From assembly GCA_964383545.1 (NCBI GenBank), contig CAYLHD010000004.1, positions 1-30,599 of the forward strand: DNA of 30,599 nt. Reading direction: 5' to 3'. Under the pieces are notes generated by a model. It made no database searches. It was not told the DNA's origin and saw nothing but the letters and a program-made list of their open reading frames with translations. The position numbers and the translations under genes were made by a program. The DNA is from an uncultured Candidatus Saccharibacteria bacterium (GTDB lineage: Bacteria > Patescibacteriota > Minisyncoccia > Phycocordibacterales > UBA12079). Numbering within the stretch: the first letter of the stretch is position 1; the number at the start of each line of letters is the position of its first letter. Shown one piece after another: positions 14,794-15,257 of the stretch.

Positions 14794-14818
14794 ATATGGC
14801 CCTATCGTCTAATGGTTA
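14794..14818 (+). repeat. Exact direct copy of the tRNA-Glu 5' end
   Basis: ATATGGCCCTATCGTCTAATGGTTA is identical to 14979-15003 (25/25). Confidence 0.95.
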
Positions 14819-14982
14819 TTGGAATTTAAAACAAACTGCTTTGTTTTAAATCCGGTTCTGAGCTGACGAGGAAATTTCCGTTATTGAGCGAAGTAAGATA
14901 GGAAATAGGATAAGGCTTTGTAAAAGCTGATGTCTAGTATAAGATTAGATAAATATAGTTAATTTAAAACAGAATATAATAT

Positions 14983-15054
14983 GGCCCTATCGTCTAATGG
15001 TTAGGACATCGGCTTTTCAAGCCGGCAATCCGGGTTCGATTCCCGGTAGGGTCA
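14983..15054 (+). tRNA. tRNA-Glu(TTC)
   Basis: Acceptor GGCCCTA/TAGGGTC + A73, anticodon arm TCGGC-TTTTCAA-GCCGG, T loop TTCGATT. CCA not encoded. Confidence 0.96.
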
Positions 15055-15137
15055 CAAATTAAAAACAGCTGAAAAAGCTGTTTTTAATTTGTGACCCTAC
15101 AGAAAGCAAATAATTTTGCTTTCGTCGGGAATCGAAC
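15046..15137. repeat. 25-bp perfect inverted repeat including the tRNA-Glu 3' end, continuing as an inverted T-arm copy after an inserted hairpin
   Basis: 15046-15070 pairs with 15076-15100. 15126-15137 is the reverse complement of 15034-15045. The 25-nt interruption contains the hairpin GAAAGCAAA/TTTGCTTTC. Confidence 0.95.
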
Positions 15138-15243
15138 GGCGGAGTATGTTGTGACTGAAAGGAACAACAACGAGCCGTGTCCCGCGGCACTTAACGAATA
15201 AGGAGCTTGTGACGAAATGAGTTTAGTGACCGTCAGGACGAGA

Positions 15244-15257
15244 CCGGTAGGGTCACA
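15244..15257 (+). repeat. Direct copy of the tRNA-Glu 3' end
   Basis: CCGGTAGGGTCACA is identical to 15043-15056 (14/14). Confidence 0.88.

Follow-up and report, generated by a model that had tools for sequence, protein, structure and literature searches.

Direct repeats that begin in the T-loop, and a target range that takes in both tRNA and transfer-messenger RNA (tmRNA) genes, are typical of genomic islands that integrate at tRNA genes. Islands and prophages whose tyrosine integrases belong to the T-loop sublocation class insert in a fixed orientation, restore the gene they enter by a block of identity that runs from the T-loop to the 3' end, leave the old 3' end behind as a downstream direct repeat and build up arrays by accretion. 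In a second group of systems, the attC sites of integrons and the attP(+) hairpin of CTX phage (XerCD), inverted target-like arms allow one folded strand to imitate the target duplex. Here, we analyze a 30,599-nucleotide stretch of DNA from an uncultured Candidatus Saccharibacteria bacterium (contig CAYLHD010000004.1; the whole stretch is called the window), in which a tRNA-Glu gene is followed by an element that shares features with both groups: Positions 15056-15257 are one member of a conserved family of structured elements of ~170-200 nt in Patescibacteria, and the hairpin and partial tRNA copies found at tRNA-Glu are the arms of this one copy, read on the tRNA-sense strand. The element is nearest in kind to miniature integrative or folded-strand recombination elements, and its target-copying arms distinguish it from all of them.

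With the islands, the element has in common the target set, the orientation, the identity block, the restored gene with its displaced 3' end and the arrays; a direct copy from C56 is present in all loci, and tRNA-Ser offers a pair of a filled and an empty site. It differs in its size of ~200 nt, in the lack of an integrase (none recurs within 3 kb in ~90 loci), in the additional inverted target copy and structured core, and in that one core family serves 17 tRNA types. The likeness to attC and attP(+) extends to stem bulges, strand-specific folding, tandem arrays and the absence of an enzyme of its own; however, the T-loop only approximates RYYYAAC/GTTRRRY, no link to IntI or Xer was seen, each copy's arms equal the local tRNA instead of following a fixed consensus, and the loop is a three-way junction. 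Moreover, what resembles a T-loop stands at the inner rather than the outer ends of the arms, adjoining the core, and no IntI was found.

More distant comparisons are each partial. MITEs (miniature inverted-repeat transposable elements), REP/BIME, Correia and Rickettsia palindromic elements are likewise small, non-coding, multi-copy, hairpin-forming and non-autonomous residents of compact genomes, but the terminal inverted repeats of the present element are copies of a neighboring gene and differ from locus to locus with the local tRNA, its direct repeat comprises ~20 nt of tRNA, it occupies one class of site and its core is conserved across deep lineages. The R2 5' ribozyme and the theta ribozymes, which resemble the hepatitis delta virus (HDV) ribozyme and lie by phage tRNAs, also place a structured RNA against a co-oriented conserved RNA gene, and the R2 fold draws on host-gene sequence as the element does; here, in contrast, no ribozyme family matches, no reverse transcriptase is linked, and a hairpin separates the element from the tRNA. 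Two of its helices, P1 and P3, together amount to a perfect duplex version of the acceptor/T-stem of the local tRNA that ends in that tRNA's discriminator and trailer, which recalls the minihelix mimics (the tRNA-like domain of tmRNA, YrlA, external guide sequences of RNase P); the element, however, has neither a T-loop nor an encoded CCA, and its outer arm is dispensable in old copies. Finally, TnpB omega RNA and IS110 bridge RNA join a conserved scaffold to ~20 nt equal to the adjacent target, whereas no TnpB, IscB or IS110 gene lies near the element and its "guide" is paired with its own complement.

Anatomy of the copy at tRNA-Glu

On the tRNA-sense strand, the copies follow one order (Table 1): a terminator-like hairpin (H), an inverted copy of the tRNA 3' part (A'), in about half of the copies a further hairpin (hp0), the core, and lastly A2, which repeats the tRNA 3' part directly. 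A' is the reverse complement of the neighboring tRNA as far back as G53, which takes in its T-loop, the 3' strands of its T-stem and acceptor stem and its short trailer, and A2 repeats the same tRNA from C56 onward. The hp0 modules (A-stem-loop-GU) are homologous and inserted exactly 9 nt from the complement of C56. In the window, the template for both arms is A1, the last ~22 nt of tRNA-Glu (15034-15055, G53 to the 3' end), which also forms the left arm of the long hairpin; the gene itself encodes a cloverleaf with anticodon that scores 66 bits against RF00005 (gathering score 29). Element-bearing tRNA genes at many loci, including this one (15055-15059), encode no CCA, and many continue with CAAA(U), one change away from CCA.

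Table 1. Features around tRNA-Glu in the window (positions in the 30,599-nucleotide stretch).
Feature	Position	Strand	Basis
Second element, same architecture, 3' of tRNA-Ser(cga)	14222-14415	-	
tRNA-Ser(cga)	14416-14503	-	ARAGORN
5' feature: 28-nt direct repeat flanking a 157-nt segment (14819-14975)	14791-15003	+	
tRNA-Glu(UUC), anticodon ttc, intact, CCA not encoded	14983-15055	+	ARAGORN; Rfam RF00005
H, terminator-like hairpin AAAUUAAAAACAGCU GAAAA AGCUGUUUUUAAUUU	15056-15090	+	repeat search, fold
A' distal, GUGACCCUAC, exact complement of acceptor 3' strand and discriminator	15091-15100	+	repeat search, folds
hp0: A, 9-bp hairpin, GU	15101-15125	+	family comparison
A' proximal (second part of the inverted copy)	15126-15137	+	
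Core matched by covariance model R1	15126-15247	+	97.8 bits, E=2e-22
P3 5' strand, T-stem/T-loop complement	15126-15134	+	
Conserved AACGGCGGAG	15135-15144	+	
Variable hairpin hp1	15145-15171	+	
Conserved GAGCCGUGUCCCGCGGCAC	15172-15190	+	
Variable hairpin hp2	15191-15225	+	
Conserved GUGACCGUCAGGA	15226-15238	+	
P3 3' strand, imperfect in the window copy	15239-15247	+	
A2, direct copy of tRNA 3' part, CGAGA-CCGGUAGGGUCACA	15239-15257	+	repeat search
tRNA-Val(gac)	15353-15427		ARAGORN

The first-pass annotation of this DNA had described these repeats as a peculiarity of a single tRNA gene, and its repeat list holds throughout: The perfect 25-bp inverted repeat pairs 15046-15070 with 15076-15100 across a 5-nt loop and includes the acceptor 3' strand in its left arm, the T-arm complement matches at 12 of 12 positions (15126-15137 versus 15034-15045), a 25-nt hairpin (15101-15125) stands exactly between the complements of 15046 and 15045, a direct 3' copy is identical at 14 of 14 positions (15244-15257 versus 15043-15056), and a direct 5' copy agrees at 27 of 28 (14791-14818 versus 14976-15003; 25 of 25 from 14794/14979). 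Our analysis confirmed that these repeats are real and far above chance. When 14500-15600 was shuffled 200 times with its dinucleotides preserved, the longest short-loop hairpin had a mean length of 6.8 and never exceeded 13, and for the longest direct repeat the corresponding values were 9.7 and 13, while 25 was observed for each.

The interpretation given to the list was partly supported: It was right on anatomy and recency, but missed the family. The hairpin said to invade the acceptor stem is H together with A', the interrupted inverted copy is A' with hp0 set into it, and the 14/14 copy is A2, the T-loop part of which is altered and which supplies the 3' strands of P3 and P1. The presumed 25-nt insert is hp0, a homologous module that in the window differs by 1 nt from that of a tmRNA-linked copy (L077; loci are numbered with the prefix L). 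GTGACC does lie at 15226-15231; it is, however, not a complement derived from the tRNA but part of the core block GUGACCGUCAGGA, which is nearly invariant across the family whatever tRNA adjoins. Rather than belonging to one unusual gene, the whole represents a structured element that is conserved, occurs in multiple copies and stands behind many tRNAs and tmRNA: P3, AACGGCGGAG, GAGCCGUGUCCCGCGGCAC and GUGACCGUCAGGA are all present, the copy lies 3' of a tRNA on the same strand, its arms match tRNA-Glu, and the core proper between the arms spans 15135-15238.

H is preceded by an A-tract and followed by a U-tract and forms the tip of the 25-bp palindrome. An intrinsic terminator would have a G+C-rich stem before a U run; the stem of H is followed by UUUUUAAUUU, but with only 4 G-C pairs it drew no call from a simple pattern scan, which we ascribe to this small number. 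The distal part of A' is the 5' strand of P1 and has two possible partners, either 15247-15256 in A2 or 15046-15055 in the tRNA itself. In general, the arms close the core via P3 and P1, with the tRNA's own 3' half as the alternative partner, and the two pairings are mutually exclusive. The suggested invasion of the acceptor stem is borne out thermodynamically: A transcript from the tRNA to 15262 folds best with the downstream arm on the tRNA 3' half (-135.8 versus -108.2 kcal/mol, a difference of 27.6 kcal/mol), so that the full transcript favors capture.

The most stable fold also pairs the tRNA 5' strand with A2, and a tRNA is predicted in the window, L017 and L041 once U55 is joined to A2, as would be expected if the segment from C56 to the core end were an intron or the gap of a split gene in the T-loop and A2 the true 3' exon. 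The upstream tRNA is already complete, though, A2 is often decayed, no group I/II intron matches, and in 20 loci that lack an upstream tRNA no spliced tRNA was predicted at any junction; the candidate failed this test, and we regard it as extremely improbable.

An assembly fold-back chimera, which the first-pass annotation had named as the outcome that would overturn it, has a practically negligible probability. In its favor, locus L001 (1-330), from another sample, joins different sequence at 15049 within the palindrome. The chimera nevertheless fails because independent assemblies span the palindrome unchanged and reach unique genes on both sides: a 628-nt unitig of run X2 (14801-15428) with zero differences, unitigs in X1, X4 and X5, the JGI contig L002 and the ENA contig L003. 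At the L001 join, we noted a gene end, TTGATATAAT (an extended -10-like motif) and a tRNA-like stretch that is degenerate and has GGGTCAC at its end; in run X5 this junction is a loose end, and it points to a second genomic copy or a structural variant.

A structured element family immediately 3' of tRNA and tmRNA genes

The window derives from salt-lake and marine metagenomes, and relaxed matching in the same metagenomes yielded many unrelated contigs that match 15118-15194 at 85-90% identity within different flanks. Read depth over this segment is ~5 times that of its surroundings, and paired substitutions at 15151/15165 and 15152/15164 among the variants preserve a hairpin. The invariant 19-mer 15172-15190 was matched by 36 stretches among GTDB species representatives; 31 are from Patescibacteria (Paceibacteria, Saccharibacteria, Kaiserbacteria, Nomurabacteria, Campbellbacteria and others), several genomes of which hold 2-5 copies each. 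The other five, from Streptomyces, Sporobacter, Pseudonocardia and an uncultured Sphaerobacteraceae bacterium, look like chance matches because the flanking conserved blocks are absent. A gapped pattern was found in 63 metagenome contigs, and a covariance model built from 28 copies (R1) gave 127 matches in 95 loci, mostly of Patescibacteria.

Known families offer no counterpart. Against Rfam 15, only the tRNA passed in the window amid chance-level noise (E up to 10), and five other element loci gave nothing at E up to 1; tmRNA, signal recognition particle RNA, RNase P, 6S RNA, Y RNA, riboswitches, hammerhead, HDV-like and other ribozymes and group I/II introns were rejected as identities of 15056-15257, as none of their Rfam 15 models matched. 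A phage origin was set aside after both the 19-mer and the gapped pattern returned 0 matches among IMG/VR viral contigs, and a retron, group II intron or diversity-generating retroelement after no adjacent reverse transcriptase gene was seen. We did not find the family described in open-access literature text, and a prior description is possible.

The core is built from three helices that meet at a three-way junction. P3 (7-9 bp) pairs the T-loop/T-stem complement with the start of A2. After two unpaired bases follows the helix ACGGC/GCCGU with the internal loop GGA/GA and the variable hairpin hp1, and the third helix, GUCC/GGAC stacked on GCGGCAC/GUG(A)CCGU, bears hp2, at whose tip UGA...GAA flanks are common. 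Compensatory changes on both sides occur at 23 of the 26 core pairs of the R1 alignment, and 94.9% of its cells are paired as compared to 31-48% (~35%) in slid-partner controls; the alignment was fitted to R1 itself, so that this support is somewhat inflated. A second core subtype forms the same helices via double substitutions, for example GUCC/GGAC to GGUC/GACC, and the two subtypes often stand in tandem behind one tRNA, in either order (L014, L018, L025, L006, L054, L092, L100, L041). In 69 of 77 distinct copies, folding favors the tRNA-sense strand over the complementary one, by a mean of 4.0 kcal/mol, which led us to reject a tRNA-like gene on the minus strand. In copies that lack hp0 (L037, L057, L052, L088, L016), we observed a one-base bulge in the inverted arm by the discriminator complement, often as ...UUUGU-A-GC...; because it recurs across different tRNAs, the bulge may be a recognition feature.

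The elements sit immediately 3' of tRNA or tmRNA genes and in the orientation of the gene. For 60 of 96 strong copies, a tRNA or tmRNA on the same strand ends 32-80 nt upstream or, in arrays with another copy in between, 181-381 nt upstream; the remaining copies mostly have too little upstream sequence. Tallied by amino acid, 17 tRNA types are represented, in addition to tmRNA (L077, L095). At every locus, the arms match the locus' own tRNA: G53 is where the inverted copy ends, and C56 is where the direct copy begins. The loci sampled were selected because they hold an element; among their 120 tRNA/tmRNA genes, 66 have one downstream.

Taken by themselves, the invariable orientation, the better fold of the sense strand, the strong covariation, the retention of P3 in all copies while the outer arms decay, the two exclusive pairings and the distribution over several Patescibacteria lineages would suit an RNA module useful to the host that is transcribed with the tRNA or just after it. 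Such a module might act in two ways: The arms would imitate the acceptor/T-stem minihelix and RNase P, RNase Z, RNase III or the CCA-adding enzyme would free a stable core RNA, or the 5' arm would capture the tRNA 3' half in read-through transcripts and serve as a switch or in quality control; in either case, the core would bind a protein or ligand. Real terminators, moreover, often follow A2. At the RNA level, no run covering the window copy was found, and three low-depth contigs from two wastewater metatranscriptomes cover homologues of the core while other runs yielded none; these contigs may reflect transcription, but the evidence is thin and DNA carry-over is possible. Against a host module stand the figure of 66 of 120 tRNA/tmRNA genes with an element downstream, in loci chosen for the element, the differences in presence between strains, the many copies that are decayed or displaced far from any tRNA, and the terminator-like hairpin that separates tRNA and element. 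A host function also leaves the exact copying of trailer and acceptor sequence unexplained. On balance, we consider it unlikely, though the strongest competitor.

Proposed recombination at the T-loop and its alternatives

Differences between strains bear on whether the element moves. Beside tRNA-Ser, where the window and L002 are 99.5% identical, L002 (425-720) carries a 197-nt unit with a core of the second subtype that is absent from the window (14330-14452). On either side of the unit stands a direct repeat of 20 nt from the tRNA-Ser 3' end (CGAAUCCUCUCGUCUC[C/U]GCA), and the hairpin that directly follows tRNA-Ser in the window lies downstream of the displaced repeat in L002. The difference is a clean pair of a filled and an empty site, and it fits integration because a hairpin equivalent to H lies inside the inserted segment. 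To the left of the unit, L002 enters a different gene than the window's tsaD, which indicates a rearrangement or an assembly join at the repeat.

Beyond this pair, copies form tandem arrays, perfect in L022 and L102 and with three copies in L041. Others are displaced: They retain a left-arm stub only, and the 1-6 kb that separate them from the tRNA or tmRNA hold cargo such as Fic proteins, a large serine recombinase island at tmRNA and a RelE-type toxin pair. In L011 (230-1964), a Fic gene stands between two copies, and Fic-domain proteins downstream of copies recur in 6-7 loci only (including L011 and L080). The recombinase island, with a 542-aa large serine recombinase, lies directly at tmRNA (L070 4999-6627), and the displaced copy is 5.9 kb away.

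Across 41 loci, the outer arms range from perfect to unrecognizable: Both are kept in 12, only the inverted one in 8 and only the direct one in 8. The earlier proposal that the perfect identities at tRNA-Glu reflect a recent origin agrees with this picture. Since decay is symmetric, the outer arms are relics and not selected sequence, and selection for complementarity of the inverted arm to the tRNA was rejected. In one genome, by contrast, the cores at tRNA-Ala and tRNA-Ser differ by two substitutions while arms, H and hp0 differ, and the window copy is a mosaic whose hp0 is that of a copy linked to tmRNA and whose hp1/hp2 are those of a copy linked to tRNA-Gly; therefore, cores have been exchanged between copies.

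The explanation we favor, to which we give about an even chance, is that the element is a miniature, non-autonomous integrative element that recombines at the T-loop of tRNA genes with an enzyme acting in trans. A unit consisting of the tRNA 3' part, H, A' and the core would recombine at the T-loop (U55|C56) of a tRNA-like gene, thereby renewing the 3' end of the tRNA and pushing the original 3' end downstream, where it would remain as the direct repeat A2. The recombinase would be supplied in trans and would recognize the folded tRNA-sense strand, whose inverted arms would imitate the duplex target; the core would be either the folded structure so recognized or a small RNA that the element carries. 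Gene conversion would then homogenize cores between copies and leave the outer arms to decay neutrally. Excision would produce a circle in which the core 3' end is joined to CGAUUCCCGGUAGGGUCACAAAUU, and a site in which tRNA-Glu is joined to the sequence after 15257.

Several observations weigh against this explanation. Neither the circle nor an empty tRNA-Glu site was seen in metagenome unitigs, and the tRNA-Ser difference could equally be a deletion between direct repeats. No protein gene recurs within 3 kb of the copies (the best cluster comprises 7 of ~90 loci), and no integrase, transposase or reverse transcriptase is linked to them. A single recombinase for 17 tRNA types and tmRNA would have to recognize structure or the T-loop instead of sequence. 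Near-identical cores at different tRNAs are also explicable by gene conversion without movement, and integration has no need of the functional RNA to which covariation, strand bias and hairpin tips flanked by UGA...GAA point. Lastly, in the hp0 subfamily with perfect arms (window, L017, L041, L077), target-matched sequence lies on both sides of the conserved hp0; consequently, a simple duplication of contiguous target is not sufficient.

Two further readings concern how the arms arise. The first, which we hold tentatively as possible, is a new class of mobile element or RNA: A three-way-junction RNA or folded strand would target the T-loop and gain sense and antisense copies of the gene's tail, even on both sides of hp0. 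The second assigns the arms to replication error, with fold-back priming at the terminator hairpin, subsequent template switching in the T-loop and no element at all. While the palindrome is indeed centered on a hairpin, the boundaries fall in the universally conserved T-loop and the outer arms decay neutrally, errors of this kind could not produce, in ~100 loci of many lineages, a core of ~105 nt whose junction nucleotides are conserved and which shows compensatory changes; chance errors contribute at most to arm-making, and as an explanation of the whole this one is very improbable.

The displaced copies and their cargo invite yet another explanation, in which each copy is the tRNA-proximal (attL-side) end of an integrase-borne island whose integrase and cargo were later lost, and the conserved core is a small RNA or arm-binding region of that island, similar to cis-mobilizable remnants of integrative elements. 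The direct repeats that begin in the T-loop, a target spectrum that includes tmRNA, the cargo between copies (Fic, RelE-type toxin and others) and the serine recombinase island at tmRNA next to a displaced copy are all in line with it. However, most copies are ~200 nt long with nothing between the repeats, no integrase recurs beside them, an inverted target copy is foreign to such islands, and island integrases are usually specific for one gene, whereas the same core is found at 17 tRNA types. We therefore judge island relics to be improbable, and integration in trans remains the explanation that we prefer.

Surroundings of the element and consequences for Patescibacteria

The window (31% G+C) is a housekeeping stretch of a Patescibacteria-type bacterium. 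Its gene products include LeuRS, ValRS, TsaD, FtsZ/FtsA, GyrA, Pth and MltG; only housekeeping genes were seen, no integrase or recombinase is among them, and ARAGORN placed no tmRNA at the locus. The tRNA-Ser, tRNA-Glu and tRNA-Val genes lie within a 1.1-kb gap between tsaD and a DUF389 gene.

The second element of the window, 3' of tRNA-Ser, has a hairpin and a complement of the T-arm (GAGGAUUCGA); its G+C-rich core of 90 nt goes unrecognized by R1, and 14238-14260 is a direct copy of the 3' end of tRNA-Ser. What had been taken for a 5' copy of tRNA-Ser is in fact this copy of the 3' end, as the gene lies on the minus strand. Judging from the MKILSIETSCDE motif, the start of the tsaD open reading frame (ORF) at 14305 (GTG) is probably over-extended and the true start lies near 14221.

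The 5' copy at tRNA-Glu had been joined with the 3' structure, but is unrelated to it and flanks a separate 185-bp unit. Its 28-nt repeat comprises 7 nt of leader and tRNA-Glu positions 1-21, and the unit is present once in the window, twice in L002 and not at all in a related X2 contig, in which 14786 is joined to the tRNA-Glu start through 9 other letters. The 157-nt segment has no homologue in the other ~100 loci and is not recognized by R1; a weak likeness of 14880-14900 to the hp2 tip was discarded, as R1 gave it no support even with filters off. The D-loop boundary of the unit mirrors the T-loop boundary on the other side of tRNA-Glu, and the single mismatch in the second 28-nt repeat creates TATAAT just upstream of the functional tRNA-Glu.

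Special conservation of the intergenic region was considered and rejected: L001 (from 15049), L003 (from 14985) and L002 (from 14794) match the window exactly up to 17152, and all differences begin at 17153. From this position, in ftsZ, the three differ from the window by ~3%, which marks either a sharp boundary left by recombination between strains or, in one assembly, a chimeric join.

For Rfam, the family fills a gap with a well-supported new structured RNA or single-strand motif of which ~100 examples are aligned. Its repeats explain assembly breaks and strain rearrangements beside tRNA genes in metagenome bins, and they also cause over-extended ORF calls such as that of tsaD. Patescibacteria have tiny genomes and single-copy tRNA genes, yet 66 of the 120 genes in our element-chosen sample carry the element. 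If it is a module of the host, it would give a major radiation of bacteria a new layer at which tRNA is processed or controlled. If it represents a new class, a templated, structure-guided integration or arm-rewriting step would be at work that is unlike integrases, transposases and guide-RNA systems. If it is mobile, it would be a minimal site-specific insertion system directed at a sequence conserved in all life, and the question it poses to the biology of these bacteria would be how its target-matched arms arise.

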